64,000 nucleotides of DNA from Escherichia coli (GCF_003790525.1 NZ_CP033635.1); one strand, 5' to 3'. Numbered from the stretch's first letter, positions 7,078-54,229 are shown. A program made the numbers and translations. Notes: generated from the sequence alone by a model not told the origin.

Positions 7078-7215
7078 GATGTGCCACATCCGGCATGGTT
7101 TGCCGGATGTGGCGTATGCTAATAAGACGCGTCAGCGTCGCATCAGGCAACCGGCTCGGGCGTTAGATGTCGGATGCGGCGTAACCGCCTTATTCGGCCT
7201 ACAGGTTGCAGCACT
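7078..7215. repeat. REP/BIME-type repetitive extragenic palindromes (two or more units) between the mqo and eco 3' ends
   Basis: GCCGGATG...GGCGTAACCGCCTTATTCGGCCTAC-type palindromic units typical of enterobacterial REP sequences, in a convergent intergenic region. Confidence 0.7.
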
Positions 7216-8869: not shown

Positions 8870-11352
8870 AACTCAGTCGTCGTAGCTTTATGAAAGCTAA
8901 CGCCGTTGCGGCCGCTGCGGCGGCTGCCGGTCTCAGCGTGCCGGGCGTTGCCCGCGCCGTTGTTGGTCAGCAGGAAGCCATTAAATGGGATAAAGCGCCG
9001 TGCCGTTTCTGCGGTACGGGTTGCGGCGTTCTGGTCGGAACGCAGCAGGGGCGTGTGGTGGCCTGTCAGGGCGACCCGGACGCACCGGTTAACCGTGGCC
9101 TGAACTGCATTAAGGGCTATTTCCTGCCCAAAATCATGTACGGTAAAGACCGTTTGACGCAGCCGCTGCTGCGTATGAAAAACGGTAAATATGACAAAGA
9201 AGGCGAATTTACCCCAATCACCTGGGATCAGGCCTTCGATGTGATGGAAGAGAAATTTAAGACTGCCCTGAAAGAAAAAGGGCCGGAATCGATCGGTATG
9301 TTCGGTTCTGGTCAGTGGACTATCTGGGAAGGTTATGCCGCGTCCAAGTTGTTCAAAGCGGGCTTCCGTTCGAACAACATCGACCCGAACGCGCGTCACT
9401 GTATGGCGTCGGCAGTAGTTGGCTTTATGCGTACCTTTGGTATGGATGAGCCGATGGGCTGCTACGACGACATCGAGCAGGCTGACGCGTTTGTGCTGTG
9501 GGGCGCAAACATGGCGGAGATGCACCCGATCCTCTGGTCGCGCATCACTAACCGTCGTCTCTCTAACCAGAACGTTACCGTGGCGGTGCTTTCTACCTAC
9601 CAGCATCGTAGCTTCGAGCTGGCGGATAACGGCATCATCTTTACGCCGCAATCTGACCTGGTGATCCTGAACTATATCGCCAACTATATCATTCAAAACA
9701 ATGCGATAAATCAGGACTTCTTCAGCAAACACGTTAACCTGCGCAAAGGGGCGACGGACATCGGCTACGGTTTACGTCCGACCCATCCGCTGGAAAAAGC
9801 AGCGAAGAATCCGGGTTCTGACGCCTCCGAACCGATGAGCTTTGAAGATTACAAAGCCTTCGTTGCTGAATATACGCTGGAAAAAACCGCCGAAATGACC
9901 GGCGTGCCGAAAGACCAGTTAGAACAACTGGCGCAGCTGTATGCCGATCCGAACAAGAAAGTCATCTCCTACTGGACGATGGGCTTCAACCAGCATACCC
10001 GTGGTGTGTGGGCCAACAACCTGGTCTACAACCTGCACCTGCTGACCGGCAAAATTTCCCAGCCGGGTTGCGGTCCGTTCTCCCTGACCGGGCAGCCTTC
10101 CGCGTGTGGTACTGCGCGTGAAGTGGGCACCTTTGCTCACCGTCTGCCTGCGGACATGGTGGTGACTAACGAGAAACATCGTGATATTTGCGAGAAGAAG
10201 TGGAATATCCCGAGTGGCACCATTCCGGCGAAAATCGGTCTGCACGCGGTGGCACAAGACCGTGCGCTGAAAGACGGCAAACTGAATGTTTACTGGACCA
10301 TGTGTACCAATAACATGCAGGCCGGACCGAACATTAATGAAGAGCGTATGCCGGGCTGGCGCGATCCGCGCAACTTTATCATCGTTTCCGATCCGTATCC
10401 GACGGTCAGTGCGCTGGCAGCGGACTTGATCCTGCCGACCGCAATGTGGGTAGAGAAAGAGGGCGCTTACGGTAATGCCGAACGCCGTACTCAGTTCTGG
10501 CGTCAGCAGGTACAGGCACCGGGTGAAGCGAAATCGGATCTCTGGCAGTTAGTTCAGTTCTCCCGCCGCTTCAAAACTGAAGAAGTGTGGCCGGAAGAGT
10601 TGCTGGCGAAGAAACCTGAACTGCGTGGCAAAACGCTGTATGAGGTTCTGTATGCCACTCCGGAAGTGAGCAAATTCCCGCTATCCGAACTGGCGGAAGA
10701 TCAGCTGAACGATGAATCCCGCGAGCTGGGCTTCTATCTGCAAAAAGGGCTGTTCGAAGAGTACGCATGGTTTGGTCGCGGTCACGGTCACGATCTCGCG
10801 CCGTTCGATGACTACCACAAAGCACGCGGTCTGCGCTGGCCGGTGGTGAACGGTAAAGAAACGCAGTGGCGTTACAGCGAAGGTAACGACCCGTACGTGA
10901 AAGCGGGCGAAGGCTACAAGTTCTACGGTAAACCGGATGGCAAAGCGGTGATCTTCGCGCTGCCGTTCGAACCTGCGGCGGAAGCACCGGATGAAGAGTA
11001 CGACCTGTGGCTCTCTACCGGACGCGTCCTGGAGCACTGGCATACCGGCAGTATGACTCGCCGTGTACCGGAACTGCACCGCGCCTTCCCTGAAGCGGTC
11101 CTGTTTATTCACCCGCTGGATGCGAAAGCGCGCGATCTGCGTCGTGGCGACAAAGTGAAAGTGGTTTCTCGCCGTGGCGAAGTGATCTCGATTGTCGAAA
11201 CGCGCGGCCGTAACCGTCCACCGCAGGGCCTGGTGTACATGCCGTTCTTCGACGCCGCACAGCTGGTTAACAAACTGACGCTGGACGCGACCGATCCGCT
11301 CTCGAAAGAGACGGACTTCAAGAAGTGCGCGGTCAAACTGGAGAAGGTGTAA
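8866..11352 (+). CDS. napA: Periplasmic nitrate reductase catalytic subunit NapA (molybdopterin, Tat-exported)
   Basis: 828-aa ORF; twin-arginine signal ([28 protein letters not shown]); N-terminal Cys cluster CRFCGTGC. Confidence 0.96.
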
Positions 11353-11358
11353 GCCATT

Positions 11359-12054
11359 ATGTCCCGGTCAGCGAAACCTCAAAATGGTCGCCGCCGCTTT
11401 CTGCGCGATGTCGTTCGCACAGCAGGCGGGCTGGCTGCCGTGGGTGTGGCGCTGGGGTTACAACAGCAAACCGCACGCGCATCTGGTGTGCGGTTGCGCC
11501 CGCCCGGAGCCATAAACGAGAACGCCTTTGCCAGTGCCTGTGTGCGTTGCGGTCAGTGTGTTCAGGCTTGCCCTTACGACACCTTAAAACTGGCGACGCT
11601 GGCTTCTGGCCTGTCGGCGGGCACGCCATATTTTGTTGCGCGGGATATTCCTTGCGAAATGTGTGAGGACATTCCGTGCGCCAAAGTGTGCCCGAGCGGT
11701 GCGCTGGATCGTGAGATCGAATCGATCGACGACGCGCGGATGGGGCTGGCGGTGCTGGTGGACCAGGAAAACTGTCTCAACTTTCAGGGGCTGCGCTGCG
11801 ATGTTTGTTATCGCGAATGCCCGAAAATTGATGAGGCCATCACCCTGGAGCTGGAGCGCAACACGCGTACCGGTAAGCACGCCCGCTTTCTGCCGACGGT
11901 TCACAGCGACGCCTGTACCGGTTGCGGTAAGTGCGAAAAAGTGTGCGTGCTGGAACAACCGGCAATCAAGGTGTTACCGCTGTCACTAGCGAAAGGGGAG
12001 TTAGGTCACCATTACCGCTTCGGCTGGCTGGAGGGGAACAATGGCAAATCGTAA
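11359..12054 (+). CDS. napG: Ferredoxin-type quinol dehydrogenase subunit NapG (Tat signal)
   Basis: 231-aa ORF; RRRFLRD twin-arginine motif; four Cys-cluster motifs. Confidence 0.94.
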
Positions 12055-12904
12055 ACGTGACGCCGGGCGCGAGGCGCTGGAGAAAAAAGGCTGGTGGCGC
12101 AGTCACCGTTGGTTAGTGTTACGTCGCCTTTGTCAGTTCTTCGTGCTGGGGATGTTTTTGAGCGGTCCGTGGTTTGGTGTGTGGATCTTGCACGGCAACT
12201 ACAGCAGTAGCCTGTTATTCGACACCGTTCCGCTGACCGATCCGCTGATGACGCTGCAAAGCCTTGCCAGCGGTCATCTGCCTGCCACGGTAGCACTGAC
12301 TGGTGCGGTAATTATCACCGTGCTCTACGCCCTGGCAGGAAAGCGATTATTTTGCAGCTGGGTCTGCCCGCTGAACCCGATTACCGACTTAGCGAACTGG
12401 TTACGCAGGCGCTTTGACCTCAATCAGTCTGCGACGATCCCTCGCCACATTCGCTACGTGCTGTTGGTGGTCATTCTGCTGGGATCGGCCTTAACCGGCA
12501 CGCTCATCTGGGAATGGATCAACCCCGTTTCCCTGATGGGGCGCAGCCTGGTAATGGGCTTCGGTAGCGGCGCGCTGCTTATTCTCGCGCTGTTTTTATT
12601 TGATCTACTGGTCGTTGAACACGGCTGGTGCGGTCACATTTGTCCGGTTGGCGCGCTGTATGGCGTACTGGGTAGCAAAGGTGTGATTACCGTTGCGGCC
12701 AGCGATCGGCAGAAATGTAACCGCTGTATGGATTGTTTTCATGTTTGCCCGGAACCGCATGTGCTACGTGCCCCGGTGCTGGATGAACAAAGCCCGGTGC
12801 AGGTCACCAGCCGCGATTGCATGACGTGCGGTCGCTGCGTGGATGTCTGTTCTGAGGATGTATTTACAATAACTACACGATGGAGTTCGGGAGCGAAATC
12901 ATGA
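12041..12904 (+). CDS. napH: Membrane ferredoxin-type quinol dehydrogenase subunit NapH
   Basis: 287-aa ORF with TM segments and C-terminal Cys clusters; overlaps napG by 14 nt. Confidence 0.94.
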
Positions 12905-13350
12905 AAAGCCATGACCTGAAGAAAGCGCTGTGTCAATGGACGGCGATGCTGGCCCTGGTGGTGAGCGGCGCGGTTTGGGCGGCTAATGGCGTCGATTTTA
13001 GCCAGTCGCCGGAAGTATCCGGGACGCAGGAAGGGGCCATTCGGATGCCAAAAGAGCAGGAACGGATGCCGCTGAACTATGTGAATCAGCCGCCAATGAT
13101 CCCGCATAGCGTTGAAGGTTATCAGGTAACGACCAATACCAACCGCTGCTTGCAGTGCCACGGTGTCGAAAGCTATCGCACCACTGGCGCGCCGCGCATC
13201 AGTCCTACTCACTTTATGGACAGCGACGGCAAAGTGGGCGCGGAAGTGGCTCCGCGTCGTTATTTCTGTCTGCAATGTCACGTACCGCAGGCCGATACCG
13301 CGCCAATCGTGGGGAATACCTTTACCCCATCAAAAGGTTACGGGAAATAA
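12901..13350 (+). CDS. napB: Periplasmic di-haem cytochrome c NapB
   Basis: ORF 12880..13350 trimmed to the MKSHDLKK start (149 aa); signal peptide; two CxxCH motifs (CLQCH twice); ATGA overlap with the napH stop. Confidence 0.93.
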   Translation: MKSHDLKKALCQWTAMLALVVSGAVWAANGVDFSQSPEVSGTQEGAIRMPKEQERMPLNYVNQPPMIPHSVEGYQVTTNTNRCLQCHGVESYRTTGAPRISPTHFMDSDGKVGAEVAPRRYFCLQCHVPQADTAPIVGNTFTPSKGYGK

Positions 13351-37963: not shown

Positions 37964-39520
37964 TTACCACTGCGGCGTATACGGTTTCTTCAGCCAGCGA
38001 ACAAAATCGTCCAGCGGTAACGGGCGACTAATCCAGTAGCCTTGCATGAAATTAACGCCGCGTTCGCTTAGCCATCGTGCCTGTTCTGGCGTTTCGACCC
38101 CTTCAGCAACTGTCAGCATATTGAGACGTTTCGCCAGCGTCAGCACCGCGTCAAGTACGGGTGAAGTGATCGTTTCCGTACCGATGGCGTTGATAAATCC
38201 ACGATCAATTTTCAGATAATCGAGCGTAAAACGCTCAAGATAGATAAGCGCGCTGTGCCCGGTGCCGAAGTCATCAATAGCAATTTCTACGCCGACCGAA
38301 TGCAGCCAGGCGAAGAGTTGTGTGGCTTCTCGCTCTTTCAGCATATCGCGCTCGGTAATTTCCAGCACAATCTGGAAATGGTGTGCGGGCAGGGAAGTGA
38401 GCAGTTTCTGGATATCCGCTTTAAAGCTTTCGCTGTGCAAGTGGGCCGGCGCAATGTTAATGCCAAATTTGACGCCTACCGGCAGTACTTTTTCTAATTC
38501 TGCGGCATCGCGGGCAATCAACTCAAACAGGTGCTGAGTCAGTGGCACAATCATCTTTTGCGCTTCGGCAAAGTTAATGAAGGCATCCGGGGGGATTTCT
38601 CCTGCTACTGGATGCCGCCAGCGTAGCAGTACTTCCAGGCCCGTTACCCGCAAAGCTTGTGTATCAACCACCGGTTGATATACCACGTAAAATTGTTCGC
38701 GCTTGATGGCGGTCATGATTTCTCTGCCTGGGCGCATACGCACACTCATCAGGTAATAGCAGAGAAGTCCAACGAAAGTTCCACTCATGCCACCCAGTAA
38801 AAATGCGTACCACACATCGTTCCATGTCCAGTCATCCGCATAAAGCCGAACGGTCAGAGGAATGCCCGCAATTTTAGTTTCACGGACCGGCATGTCGGTT
38901 AATTCATTAACATTCATCAAACGTGAAGAAAAGGTAGATAGCGCAGTATTACCAATAATGAGGGCGAGGCCATCGTAATCTTCCTGCCGTGAACTATAAA
39001 AGAGTGAAGGCGTCAGGTTGAGATTCAGAGCGGCAAAGACGCCGCTATTTTTCAGCAAAGGGTTGCGATACCAGATGACGATTGCGGGTTTGTTCGGCAC
39101 CATCGGCGTACCGGGTAAGATCGCCATATCGACATTTTTATTAATGTCGAGCGCCGGAATCAATTCTTTTAGTGGAATGTCCATCTCACCAGTCGCAGAT
39201 GAACAGAATGTTTTTTTATCTTTCACCAGCACAAACGTACGGACATTCATGCTAAACGCCGCGCGAGCGGTCAGTTCGGGGTTAGCCTGCTGGCAGGTAT
39301 CTAAGGTCAGCGGCTGAAGCCGGTCAGTAGTGGATTTCAGGTCGGCAAAATAGGTATCGAGATACTTTTGTACGTCGGTAATCAGTGTGTCGTATTTGAC
39401 TTCGTGCTTATGCCAGGCCACTAAAAACTGAAGGCAGCTCACCAGTATCGCAATCATCACGCCTGCAACAATGCAGGTAAGCAGGAGCTTACGTCCAGAA
39501 TTGGGAGCGCGTATGAACAT
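37964..39520 (-). CDS. rtn: Membrane-anchored EAL-domain c-di-GMP phosphodiesterase Rtn (PdeN)
   Basis: 518-aa ORF; N-terminal TM/periplasmic sensor region and C-terminal EAL-type domain. Confidence 0.9.
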   Translation of the reverse strand: MFIRAPNSGRKLLLTCIVAGVMIAILVSCLQFLVAWHKHEVKYDTLITDVQKYLDTYFADLKSTTDRLQPLTLDTCQQANPELTARAAFSMNVRTFVLVKDKKTFCSSATGEMDIPLKELIPALDINKNVDMAILPGTPMVPNKPAIVIWYRNPLLKNSGVFAALNLNLTPSLFYSSRQEDYDGLALIIGNTALSTFSSRLMNVNELTDMPVRETKIAGIPLTVRLYADDWTWNDVWYAFLLGGMSGTFVGLLCYYLMSVRMRPGREIMTAIKREQFYVVYQPVVDTQALRVTGLEVLLRWRHPVAGEIPPDAFINFAEAQKMIVPLTQHLFELIARDAAELEKVLPVGVKFGINIAPAHLHSESFKADIQKLLTSLPAHHFQIVLEITERDMLKEREATQLFAWLHSVGVEIAIDDFGTGHSALIYLERFTLDYLKIDRGFINAIGTETITSPVLDAVLTLAKRLNMLTVAEGVETPEQARWLSERGVNFMQGYWISRPLPLDDFVRWLKKPYTPQW

Positions 39521-39622: not shown

Positions 39623-39653
39623 AAAACAAAAAAGCACTGCCTAAGCAGTGCTT
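39623..39653 (-). terminator. Rho-independent terminator of mepS
   Basis: Hairpin agcactgc-ctaa-gcagtgct with a T-run on the minus strand, about 50 bp downstream of the mepS stop. Confidence 0.5.
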
Positions 39654-39700
39654 TCAGTTAACTCGTCAGGATAGCCAAGGGATTGCATCCAAACGGTTTA

Positions 39701-40267
39701 TTAGCTGCGGCTGAGAACCCGGCGTGCTTCGTTGTAACGCTTCTTCCAGTATGGTTCATTCATGCTGGAAATAATAACGCCACTGCTGGTGGAAGCATGG
39801 ACAAACTGGTTGTTGCCGATATAAATACCGACATGGCGTCCCGTTGAACCGGCACGGAACAGAACTAAATCACCCGTACGCAAATTACTGCGGGAAACAG
39901 ATTTACCCATTTCCTGCTGTTCATAAGTCGAACGCGGAAGTTCTAAGCCAAATTGCTCACGGAATGTACGCTGTACGAAACCAGAACAATCGATGCCTTT
40001 TTTAGTGCTGCCGCCCAGACGATAGCGTACGCCTTTCCAGTCAGCATACTGATCCATAATTCGCGATTTTACGTCGACATTACGAACCAGGTTTTCAAAT
40101 TCATCCTGAGAAGCTTGCAGTGATGATGTTTCACTACCCACTGCACGTGTCTCAGGATGCATATTCTTTGCGGTGTTATTTGCACTACATGCAGAAAGCA
40201 GAACCGCTACTGCAATCGCGGGGATCCCGCGCAAGATATATCTCAAAATCGGTTGAGATTTGACCAT
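39701..40267 (-). CDS. mepS: Peptidoglycan DD-endopeptidase/LD-carboxypeptidase MepS (Spr), NlpC/P60 lipoprotein
   Basis: 188-aa ORF; lipobox LLSAC; NlpC/P60 catalytic Cys in DCSGFV. Confidence 0.94.
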
Positions 40268-40678
40268 GTTGTTTGTTTTCCCTTGAAGTCCTTAACGACA
40301 AATATCGTTATAAAAAAATGCCAAGCGACACGAGACTAATTACCTGGGCATGTTGAAACAATTCCTTAAGGCCAAATCTGTGGACTAACGCACAAAATTA
40401 TATGCTGTGAGGATAATCTACCGCCGAGGCAAAACGAGTTCGAGATTACCCGATTGGTGCGGTCTTGGCGAGCGGTTTTACATGATTTTTTATAAGAAAA
40501 AGTGATACAGAAAGTTAATAAGCGGGATTGGTCAATTAAAGTACGATTGAGTGAAACGCATGCAATACATTCATTTACTTAGAGAATGATTTTTGCGTTC
40601 GATAGATGAAAGCACGGTGCGCATCATCAGGATTATCCTCACTATAAAAATAACCCTGATGATGTTAATTACTGTGAG

Positions 40679-41392
40679 TTATTTGTTTTGGAAATGTTTG
40701 TTTTTTCCCGGTAGTGATTTGTCAAAAAAGGTGATTAATCGATCACTTAATGGCGTCAGCAACACCCAGGGCAAACCGATCAATATCACGGTCATCGAAC
40801 CAACAATGATGTCAGTAAACCAGTGTGCGCCAATCATTACTCTGGGAAATGCAAAAACCACAAAAATAATAAGGGCGATAAGGCCTGCAACTTTGCCGAA
40901 ATAACGCCACATGAATGCCGAAAAAATAAGCAGCATCATACCGTGATCGCCGGGAAAGCTATCTCGTGAGGCATCTTTCGTGGGAACAGAGAGCAGTTCG
41001 CTGACGCGGTTAATATCGGTAAAAGTCAATGTTGGGCTGGCCCGTTTTACAGGAATTAATGCCTGACCCAGCTGGTTTAATACTACTGCAGTTAATAGCA
41101 TGACCAGACCAATAATCACGATACGTCGTCTGCCAGGGGCGTTTTCTTTCAGCCAGAAACTCAGCATCAACATACCCATCGCCAGCAGTGAACAACCGTC
41201 GAAGGCGCGATTGTTGGTCAATGCAACCAGCCACAAAAAGGCCTTACTTTCGACCAGTTTCTGATTAAAGAAATAAAAAATATCCGCATCAATCGGCAAC
41301 CAGAATCCATGATTAACGGGAATATACCAGGAAAGAAACAGCGCGAGGCCGACAATATTCAACAACACTATTTGCGGCAAATTTTTAATCAT
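40679..41392 (-). CDS. lpxT: Lipid A 1-diphosphate synthase LpxT (PAP2 family)
   Basis: ORF 40679..41428 trimmed to MIKNLPQIVLLNIVG (237 aa); polytopic PAP2 phosphatase-like. Confidence 0.92.
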   Translation of the reverse strand: MIKNLPQIVLLNIVGLALFLSWYIPVNHGFWLPIDADIFYFFNQKLVESKAFLWLVALTNNRAFDGCSLLAMGMLMLSFWLKENAPGRRRIVIIGLVMLLTAVVLNQLGQALIPVKRASPTLTFTDINRVSELLSVPTKDASRDSFPGDHGMMLLIFSAFMWRYFGKVAGLIALIIFVVFAFPRVMIGAHWFTDIIVGSMTVILIGLPWVLLTPLSDRLITFFDKSLPGKNKHFQNK

Positions 41393-41430: not shown

Positions 41431-42417
41431 TTACGCGGTAGTCGCTAAACGAAGCTTCAACAGCGCGCTCTGCAAGGCATTCCAGTCAGCTTCGCTGCTG
41501 GAAATCAGCTCAATACGGCTGTCCGGTGGCGCAACGTTTTGCGTTTCAATGTGCAGGTCATCGCCCTGACGGTTGATTCGCACCAGCCCTTCGGGAATAC
41601 GCAGCACGCCTTTGACGCGTTCTACCGGTGCAAGTCGCGCCCATTCCAGAATGCCAATGGTGTCGAATACCGTATCAGCGTCGAATATCCAGCCGCAGGC
41701 CTGATATCCTTGCCCGCTGTTCAGACTGCGACGCCAGCGTTGATGCTCTGGCAGGCTTAACGCTGCTAACCCTTTTTTCACGACATGCTGATGAGAATGC
41801 GCGGCGCTGGCGGGCAACTCGGCTAAATTGCGACGCGGCAAATCCAGAAGATGACCGTCAACTTTCCCATGCGCGCTGTGAATTAATTGCCGATCGCCAC
41901 CATTTTGCTGCCACCAGCGCTGTAGCGCTTGCTCACTTTCGGGCGTCGCACGGTCGGATTTATTGGCGACAATAATGTCTGCGGCAGCCAGCTGGTCACG
42001 GAAGTTTTCATTGCTGGCGCTTTTTTCGTCCAGCAGCAGGCGTGGATCGAGAATGCACAACGTGGCGCGCAGATCTATCCACGGTTCATACACGGGCGCG
42101 GTTAAGAGATCGAGGATCTGTTTCGGATGGCCCAGCCCGGTCGGCTCTATCAACAAGCGGTCTGGTTTTCCCTGACGCAGTAAGGTATTCAACCCTACCT
42201 GCATGGGTAAACCATTAACGCAGCACATACAGCCGCCGGGGATCTCTTTCAACAATGCGCCGCTATCGGCGAGCAAAGCACCATCAATTCCGACTTCCCC
42301 AAATTCATTAACCAGTACCGCCCATTTTTCGTTGGGATCTTTATGGGCTAACAGATGAAGAATCGACGTAGTTTTCCCGCTGCCGAGAAAACCGGTGATG
42401 AGGTTGGTTCTGGTCAC
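41431..42417 (-). CDS. yeiR: Zinc-binding GTPase YeiR (CobW/COG0523 family)
   Basis: 328-aa ORF; P-loop GFLGSGKTT and CxCC motif (GGCMCCVNG). Confidence 0.92.
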   Translation of the reverse strand: MTRTNLITGFLGSGKTTSILHLLAHKDPNEKWAVLVNEFGEVGIDGALLADSGALLKEIPGGCMCCVNGLPMQVGLNTLLRQGKPDRLLIEPTGLGHPKQILDLLTAPVYEPWIDLRATLCILDPRLLLDEKSASNENFRDQLAAADIIVANKSDRATPESEQALQRWWQQNGGDRQLIHSAHGKVDGHLLDLPRRNLAELPASAAHSHQHVVKKGLAALSLPEHQRWRRSLNSGQGYQACGWIFDADTVFDTIGILEWARLAPVERVKGVLRIPEGLVRINRQGDDLHIETQNVAPPDSRIELISSSEADWNALQSALLKLRLATTA

Positions 42418-54162: not shown

Positions 54163-54229
54163 GTTTCATTGCCGGATGTACGCCTTATTAAGCGTTGCAT
54201 CCGGCAATCGCGCTATTGCAGATTATTTT

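Follow-up and report, generated by a model that had tools for sequence, protein, structure and literature searches.

The spacer between lpxT and mepS of Escherichia coli carries a long palindrome just behind the lpxT stop codon, which raises the question of whether it acts as RNA at the end of the lpxT transcript, as a DNA site in front of mepS, or merely as one copy of a dispersed repeat. We addressed this question in a window of 64,000 nt of the E. coli genome GCF_003790525.1 (NZ_CP033635.1). The gene layout of the window agrees with the annotation of MG1655, and coordinates were transferred between the two by anchoring on the mepS start (Table 1). The lpxT-mepS spacer measures 411 nt and the palindrome begins 14 nt past the lpxT stop codon, close to the 410 bp and about 15 bp given by the first-pass annotation of this DNA. 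The sequence of the element is unchanged in K-12 (MG1655 2269582-2269624).

Table 1. Features of the yeiR-lpxT-mepS region; positions refer to the 64,000-nt window.
Feature	Window position	Strand in window	MG1655 position	Basis or remark
pdeN	37964-39520	minus		E. coli window
mepS	39701-40267	minus	2269979-2270545	b2175
G-poor, C>G stretch, putative Rho loading/termination zone	40436-40613	minus		composition; from the hairpin to the distal mepS promoter
Mapped RNA 3′ end	40619	minus	2269627 (+ strand there)	Adams 2021 Term-seq; 3 nt past the last paired base
Complete lpxT 3′ UTR RNA hairpin, 5′-CAUCAUCAGGGUUAUUUUUA-UAG-UGAGGAUAAUCCUGAUGAUG-3′	40622-40664	minus		folding; 20-bp stem, 3-nt loop
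3′ arm of the RNA stem, AUAAUCCUGAUGAUG	40622-40636	minus		inverted-repeat search, alignment, covariation
Escherichia-specific upper stem and loop, UUUUA-UAG-UGAGG	40637-40649	minus		pairs via G·U in lpxT-sense RNA only
σ70-like motif TTAACA-16 nt-TATAGT, facing mepS, overlapping the hairpin	40641-40668	minus		10/12 matches; probably incidental
5′ arm of the RNA stem, CAUCAUCAGGGUUAU	40650-40664	minus		cross-genus conservation concerns its outer 10 nt
lpxT stop codon	40679-40681	minus		
lpxT CDS, 237 aa	40679-41392	minus	2268854-2269567	annotated, b2174
yeiR	41431-42417	minus		b2173

An inverted-repeat search delimits two arms of 15 nt, CATCATCAGGATTAT on the lower and ATAACCCTGATGATG on the higher coordinates, with 93% complementarity and a gap of 13 nt. 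The palindrome announced by the first-pass annotation is thus real, but it fills only the inner part of the span originally assigned to it (40615-40680). The stem described there also holds, with a correction: what had been taken for a single bulge is a G·U pair in the lpxT-sense RNA, so that the arms form 15 contiguous base pairs. In the same RNA, the 13-nt gap closes by U·G, U·G, U-A, U·G, and A-U pairs, extending the stem to 20 bp around a 3-nt loop.

Folding, one of the checks suggested at the outset, supports this structure. In its context, the lpxT-sense (minus-strand) RNA reaches -24.8 kcal/mol, compared to -9.3 ± 2.7 kcal/mol for dinucleotide shuffles (z = -5.8, with none of 200 shuffles as good), and the hairpin folded alone reaches -23.7 kcal/mol (z = -7.3). 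The antisense (plus-strand) RNA, in which an A·C mismatch interrupts the stem and the 13-nt loop stays open, folds more weakly (-18.8 kcal/mol, z = -3.3), because several of the sense-strand pairs are G·U. Raw energy alone does not single out the hairpin, which ranks approximately 26th of 180 among the 50-nt regions of the window at -20 kcal/mol or below; the case for its non-randomness therefore rests on the AT-rich context, conservation, and covariation. A permissive E-value scan of 2 kb against Rfam returned only chance matches to miRNA and snoRNA families, with E > 0.3 and scores far under the gathering threshold.

For the comparative analysis, 80 loci from different Enterobacteriaceae species were fetched with MepS as an anchor. 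In 79 of them lpxT precedes mepS at a distance of approximately 415 nt, and folding about 120 nt around each lpxT stop codon places a hairpin at the matching position in almost all loci. A structure-blind MAFFT alignment of this fixed region in the 80 loci brings together one homologous hairpin with the consensus CATCAGGGATCGTTTTCGATCCCTGATG, in which the CATCAGGG block of the 5′ arm is kept in 56-65 of the 80 sequences. The top of the hairpin is GATCG-TTTT-CGATC in the relatives, which the Escherichia clade has swapped for its longer AU-rich and G·U-rich extension.

RNAalifold, applied to the MAFFT alignment, predicts the outer stem, with double-sided compensatory changes in six of six pairs. 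We also imposed the full 14-pair stem on the same alignment and compared it with 500 column shuffles. Paired cells amount to 79.3%, compared to 66.0 ± 0.8% in the column shuffles and 27-46% when the partners are slid by one to three columns, and each of the 14 pairs has changes on both sides. The number of compensatory cells (148) is not reached by any of the 500 shuffles (52 ± 5.8), and the covariation score is 0.365, while the slid structures do not exceed 0.146. Examples of compensatory arm pairs are CGGGGATC/GATCCCCG, TAGGGATC/GATCCCTA, CAAGGATC/GATCCTTG, CAGAGATC/GATCTCTG, and TGAGGG/CCCTCA; in Salmonella, the stem is rewritten almost wholly to the ACCTTCAGCGATGG/CCATCGTTGAAGGT type. Across three architectures the stability is kept at approximately -19 to -24 kcal/mol. 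As read from the alignment, this compensatory pattern is the signature of selection for base-pairing, and not for a sequence recognized by a protein.

The strand on which this pairing matters was assessed by folding each of the 80 sequences in both orientations. An advantage of at least 2 kcal/mol goes to the sense hairpin in 24 loci and to the antisense hairpin in three, the remaining ones being near-perfect palindromes; these counts are approximate, as are those of T-runs below, because the hairpin parser misreads about ten rows (several Citrobacter and a few others). In Escherichia, the gap between sense and antisense is 9 kcal/mol. We relied on folding energies per sequence since a raw count of G·U versus A·C cells in the alignment (54 versus 51) is uninformative, owing to the noise added by misaligned rows.

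The sequence behind the hairpin is where the genera part. The 8 nt following the E. coli stem, CGCACCGU, contain a single T, the longest T-run within 15 nt of the tail (CGCACCGUGCUU) is 3, and a consensus terminator scan makes no call at the lpxT hairpin. For an intrinsic terminator one expects a stable short-loop stem directly downstream of the gene, which the 20-bp stem, its 3-nt loop, and its -24.8 kcal/mol provide, followed immediately by a U-tract of approximately 7-8 nt, and an RNA 3′ end approximately 7-9 nt past the stem within that tract. The last two are absent here: the U-tract is missing and the Term-seq end described below lies at +3. Without a U-tract, the E. coli hairpin is not a canonical intrinsic terminator, in agreement with the first-pass annotation. 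E. coli RNA polymerase terminates poorly in the absence of a U-rich hybrid. Hairpins without a U-tract, termed 'I-shaped', have been reported as terminators in Actinobacteria, where their self-sufficiency in termination is disputed. They share with the lpxT element a stable hairpin at the gene end that lacks a U-trail, but the organisms and the RNA polymerase context differ.

In other genera, the orthologous hairpin is trailed by a run of at least five T (T5-T8), in 16-19 of the 80 loci depending on the measure, the taxa including Klebsiella, Kluyvera, Siccibacter, Atlantibacter, Buttiauxella, Cedecea, Dryocola, Trabulsiella, Yokenella, and Pseudescherichia. By an approximate per-sequence hairpin parse, 58 of the 80 loci have no T-run longer than 3, and Escherichia, Citrobacter, Salmonella, and Enterobacter are without one. 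The lpxT orthologues of the first six of these T-run genera end in canonical intrinsic terminators at the same site and with a similar stem energy, and in Klebsiella the terminator has a hairpin core homologous to the E. coli element (AGGGATCG…), the shared core being visible in AAGGGATCGTTCTGGGTCCCTTTTTTT. Compared to these terminators, the E. coli stem is long, AU-rich, and G·U-rich, is not followed by a U-tract, and has its mapped 3′ end directly past the stem instead of within a U-run. On a crude neighbor-joining tree of lpxT and mepS, the state of the U-tract needs at least about seven changes while the hairpin persists throughout; the tree is rough, with a few misplaced taxa, and supports only several independent switches. 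On this comparative evidence, the E. coli hairpin is orthologous to a canonical intrinsic terminator whose U-tract the Escherichia, Citrobacter, Salmonella, and Enterobacter lineages appear to have lost, with base-pairing having stayed under selection.

Published maps of RNA ends locate the lpxT transcript relative to the hairpin. Term-seq data (Adams et al. 2021, eLife 10:e62438, PMC7815308, Supplementary file 1) list a 3′ end at MG1655 2269627, in LB at OD 0.4, supported on average by 1,323 reads, with the sequence …GGATAATCCTGATGATGCGC and classified as 'orphan', presumably owing to its distance of 60 nt from the lpxT stop codon. This end was called in one of three growth conditions and is near the bottom of the read counts (PMC7815308). 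It corresponds to the base of the hairpin and is the only mapped 3′ end in the lpxT-mepS spacer. SMRT-Cappable-seq (Yan et al. 2018, PMC6131387) recovered a full-length yeiR-lpxT transcript (b2173/b2174) starting at 2267795, an lpxT-alone transcript (b2174) starting at 2268825, and mepS-alone transcripts (b2175) starting at 2269810 (window 40436) and 2269919. Among these full-length reads there is neither a joined lpxT-mepS transcript nor a transcription start site (TSS) at the hairpin. Since the yeiR-lpxT and mepS transcripts are separate, transcription from yeiR and lpxT ends in the spacer. As for a second, independent record of the 3′ end, the TERMITe supplements have no entry and the Cappable-seq 2016 supplements no coordinates here, and text searches of the literature on lpxT combined with Term-seq, bicyclomycin, or ProQ and 3′ UTR returned nothing relevant. 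The first-pass annotation had proposed to locate the lpxT 3′ end by Term-seq, and had stated that the palindrome would have no function if lpxT transcripts read through it and the sequence were not conserved; the published end lies at its base, the transcripts are separate, and the hairpin is conserved.

Taken together, these data support most favorably, with a probability of roughly 80%, a palindrome that acts as lpxT-sense RNA and forms a protective stem-loop at the 3′ end of the yeiR-lpxT mRNA. RNA polymerase starting at the yeiR and lpxT promoters would run past the lpxT stop codon and through the hairpin, to be released within the approximately 180-nt G-poor stretch ahead of the mepS promoters, most likely by Rho, while a minor part of the release may occur at the hairpin. 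The 3′→5′ exonucleases PNPase and RNase II would then trim the tail until stopped by the 20-bp stem, leaving a steady-state 3′ end 3 nt past it. In this way the stem would protect the lpxT mRNA against decay, and mepS would stay transcriptionally separate. The structure with its strand bias, the single copy per genome, the conservation and covariation, the mapped 3′ end, and the separate transcripts are observed, whereas we infer the role of exonuclease barrier as well as the site and the factor of polymerase release. An RNA 3′ stability element was among the functions initially suggested, and both the 3′ end at +3 and the compensatory evolution on the lpxT-sense strand speak for it.

A class of such elements has been described. 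Protective 3′ stem-loops of Rho-dependent transcripts were hypothesized by Peters et al. 2012 and described as a class by Dar and Sorek (2018, NAR 46:6797, PMC6061677), who found that Rho-ended transcripts of E. coli show precise 3′ ends right after stable, U-poor stem-loops, that these ends come from trimming by PNPase or RNase II of more distal termination points, and that the DNA downstream has a mild bias of C over G; they also proposed evolutionary switching of the terminator type through U content. The lpxT hairpin fits each of the sequence-level criteria of this class: it is a stable stem-loop that is not trailed by U-rich sequence, its 3′ end lies right past the stem (at +3, in one condition and with low reads), and C exceeds G downstream, modestly. 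It also shares with the class a stem energy like that of intrinsic terminators, the absence of a clear upstream A-tract, and a low expression of the gene. Two points set it apart from the published class: Rho dependence and exonuclease trimming are deduced for the lpxT site, which one bicyclomycin dataset did not flag, and, as compared to most examples of Dar and Sorek, the lpxT orthologues directly show descent from, or interconversion with, a canonical terminator.

The composition of the spacer is compatible with release by Rho. From 40613 down to 40436, 78-nt windows contain 21-29% C and 6-13% G, with C/G ratios of 1.6-3.4, and C exceeds G over the first 100 nt past the hairpin in 75 of the 80 loci, the rest of the spacer having about as much C as G. 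The bias in C is modest (21-29%), and this AT-rich region also holds promoter elements of mepS. Supplementary file 2 of Adams et al. 2021 (PMC7815308) lists no bicyclomycin-sensitive Rho region in 2268xxx-2270xxx, where the low expression of lpxT may hide one. The early proposal of a Rho-utilisation boundary is therefore left in an intermediate position, being compatible with the conserved downstream C>G bias but not accompanied by a Rho region in the one bicyclomycin dataset.

The main rival of the protective stem-loop, which we regard as unlikely, is a weak non-canonical intrinsic terminator, in which the U-less hairpin alone would dislodge the polymerase a few nucleotides downstream, independently of Rho, and exonucleases would nibble the end back to +3. 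The orthology to canonical terminators of other genera favors this scenario, as do the missing Rho-dependent region at the locus (Adams et al. 2021), the lack of lpxT-mepS read-through (Yan et al. 2018), and the remark by Dar and Sorek (2018, PMC6061677) that stem-loops poor in U may terminate intrinsically but inefficiently, with Rho as a backup. It is, however, difficult to reconcile with the single U in the 8 nt behind the stem, which would make a strong RNA:DNA hybrid, with a mapped end at +3 where +7 to +9 is usual, and with the silence of the consensus terminator scan. A 3′ end at +3 is also compatible with trimming after weak hairpin-driven termination. Release by the hairpin and release by Rho share their last step, the hairpin serving in both as an exonuclease-resistant 3′ cap.

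Two further explanations move the function from the RNA to the DNA and towards mepS. A mepS promoter made of the σ70-like motif, from which a mepS transcript with a long leader would begin near MG1655 2269612, is highly improbable. The motif combines its consensus matches with the 16-nt spacing, is the sole promoter-like match in a scan of 2.1 kb, and has its TTAAC part kept in many genera. Against it, shuffles of the region yield 3.9 ± 2.1 such matches, more than the one observed, and the mepS start sites seen by SMRT-Cappable-seq are only the two given above, none of them near 2269612 (Yan et al. 2018, PMC6131387). The -10 element lies within the Escherichia-specific loop, E. albertii, Citrobacter, and Enterobacter lack it, and a promoter would leave the covariation unexplained.

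Even less credible is a DNA element, either a palindromic site for a dimeric protein, such as a regulator of mepS, or a site related to Dam/SeqA. In its favor, many genera keep the sequence of both arms, GATC occurs twice in the consensus, and the element is placed upstream of mepS. Many lineages nevertheless alter both arms in a compensatory manner, including the first three arm pairs given above and the near-total rewrite in Salmonella, and such changes are expected from base-pairing and not from base-specific contacts of a protein. Escherichia and Citrobacter lack the GATC motifs, the G·U pairs favor one RNA strand, 170-290 nt separate the site from the mapped mepS TSSs downstream, and an RNA 3′ end maps to the element itself.

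The copy number of the element was determined by a sensitive BLAST search of complete E. coli genomes, in which 5,425 of 5,426 genomes carry the 58-nt element at a single place (median 1) and plasmids carry no copy. Within the window, the arm sequence matches only itself (0.11 matches expected by chance), and each locus of the relatives contains the consensus core exactly once, in every case at the orthologous site. The first-pass annotation had considered a REP-like protein-binding palindrome and advised a search for further copies, and the REP-like idea does not survive this search: being present in one copy per genome, the hairpin is not REP-like. Membership in the REP/BIME family, which has hundreds of dispersed copies with a GCCGGATG-type consensus, was rejected on both copy number and sequence. 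REP/BIME elements that stabilize mRNA 3′ ends, as in malE-malF, are likewise intergenic palindromes 3′ of a gene and able to block 3′→5′ exonucleases, but the lpxT element has no dispersed family. That the element is a dispersed repeat, REP-like or of another kind, the remnant of a mobile element, or a palindrome arisen by chance thus has a practically negligible probability, although the intergenic placement 3′ of a gene is typical for REP elements and genuine REP-like palindromes exist elsewhere in the window, since the single orthologous copy contradicts a repeat, Rfam has no match, and chance is excluded by family-wide conservation and covariation.

A protective stem-loop at this position would assign a function to an 'orphan' 3′ end of K-12, which would delimit the yeiR-lpxT operon on its 3′ side. 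Such a stem-loop would account for how a low-abundance mRNA for lipid A modification is capped against exonucleases and how mepS, a peptidoglycan hydrolase gene, is kept on its own promoters. The locus would further provide a concrete case of the switching of terminator type proposed by Dar and Sorek, with one hairpin that carries a U-tract in some genera only, and the comparative series may be a possible test bed for the contribution of the U-tract in vivo. The lpxT element itself was previously on record only as an unannotated 'orphan' 3′ end, while its class has been known since 2018; current understanding is left unchanged by what is an ordinary and well-documented case.

That the lpxT hairpin is more than a passive 3′ cap is a rather doubtful idea. 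With the U-tract gained or lost at least about seven times on one hairpin kept by compensatory evolution across Enterobacteriaceae, the orthologues would constitute a natural series of intrinsic versus factor-dependent 3′-end formation. The rebuilt Escherichia helix of 20 bp, rich in G·U pairs, would be long enough to serve as a specific target for a factor that binds double-stranded RNA, for example RNase III or ProQ. By binding there, this factor could adjust the level of LpxT, and thereby the 1-diphosphate modification of lipid A, or the extent to which transcription reads through into mepS, a tightly controlled gene.

Within E. coli, the only common polymorphism of the stem is at position 11 of the 5′ arm (window 40654). 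This position is G in the window and in K-12, forming a G·U pair, and T in O157 and O145, where it gives a U·U mismatch and a hairpin of -20.0 kcal/mol; it is A in E. albertii, forming an A-U pair, and C in E. coli strain 20A24 (NZ_CP147044.1). In the latter strain, an IS1 insertion interrupts the 3′ arm, which indicates that the element is dispensable for viability.

The hairpin that follows the lpxT stop codon has only one common stem polymorphism in E. coli. It lies on the minus strand at position 11 of the 5′ arm, window 40654, and its alleles are listed in the table. In E. coli 20A24 (locus L085, NZ_CP147044.1 4341377-4341538), an IS1 element is inserted in the 3′ arm, making this strain a natural disruption mutant of the hairpin. 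Among the Enterobacteriaceae loci retrieved with MepS as anchor, the lpxT frame seemingly ends 20-95 nt beyond the usual stop position in several genera (Phytobacter, Leclercia, Silvania, and Pluralibacter). In the loci concerned, the extended frame possibly reads through the hairpin, and the additional length may be either a genuine extension of the C-terminus or an artefact produced by the frame-extension method used.

The lpxT hairpin is a single-copy element, in contrast to the genuine REP-like palindromes found elsewhere in the window. It also overlaps a σ70-like motif oriented toward mepS, the -10 of which is Escherichia-specific. No transcription start site is observed at this motif in the published full-length Cappable reads.

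Cross-genus conservation of the lpxT-mepS spacer, whose length of ~415 nt is itself conserved, is far higher in the mepS-proximal 240 nt (window 40268-40513; identities per 10-nt bin mostly of 70-98%) than in the lpxT-proximal part. The conserved blocks include the surroundings of the published mepS start sites (window 40436 and 40327; Yan et al. 2018, PMC6131387). Within the mepS 5′ UTR, Term-seq data place two 3′ ends 4-6 nt ahead of the start codon (MG1655 2269973 and 2269975), directly downstream of a small hairpin, TAACGA-tatttg-TCGTTA. This hairpin belongs to a segment with 86-98% conservation among 80 Enterobacteriaceae species. Together, this hairpin and the 3′ ends may constitute a leader element controlling mepS.

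The strongest inverted repeat detected when the window was scanned is located within the mepS coding region. At MG1655 2270136 (window 40110, mepS +157), it harbours a strong 3′ end from published Term-seq data, for which two conditions each gave 10,000-13,000 reads and which was rated not Rho-dependent. The repeat with its 3′ end may correspond to an ORF-internal 3′ end or to a regulatory fragment of mepS. Downstream of the gene, the position of the intrinsic terminator agrees with that of a 3′ end in published Term-seq data (MG1655 2270620; window 39626).

Sequence features of the window and of related lpxT loci
Feature	Position	Strand	Description
Apparent lpxT frame extension	about 2585-2680		loci L031, L033, L037, L039, L042, L055, L068
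GCCGGATG…-type palindromes	window 54168-54208 and 7083-7113		genuine REP-like elements
σ70-like motif	window 40641-40668	minus	TTAACA-16 nt-TATAGT, 10/12 matches
Hairpin allele G	window 40654		K-12 and window; G·U pair
Hairpin allele T	window 40654		O157, O145; U·U mismatch
Hairpin allele C	window 40654		E. coli strain 20A24
Hairpin allele A	window 40654		E. albertii; Watson-Crick pair
Conserved spacer block	window 40484-40513		TTTCTGTATCACTTTTTCTTATAAAAAATC
mepS 5′ UTR element	window 40271-40310	minus	Term-seq 3′ ends and small hairpin
Imperfect inverted repeat	window 40099-40162	minus	24 nt, 83% complementary, inside mepS coding region
Canonical intrinsic terminator 3′ of mepS	window 39630-39655	minus	11-bp stem, then T-run
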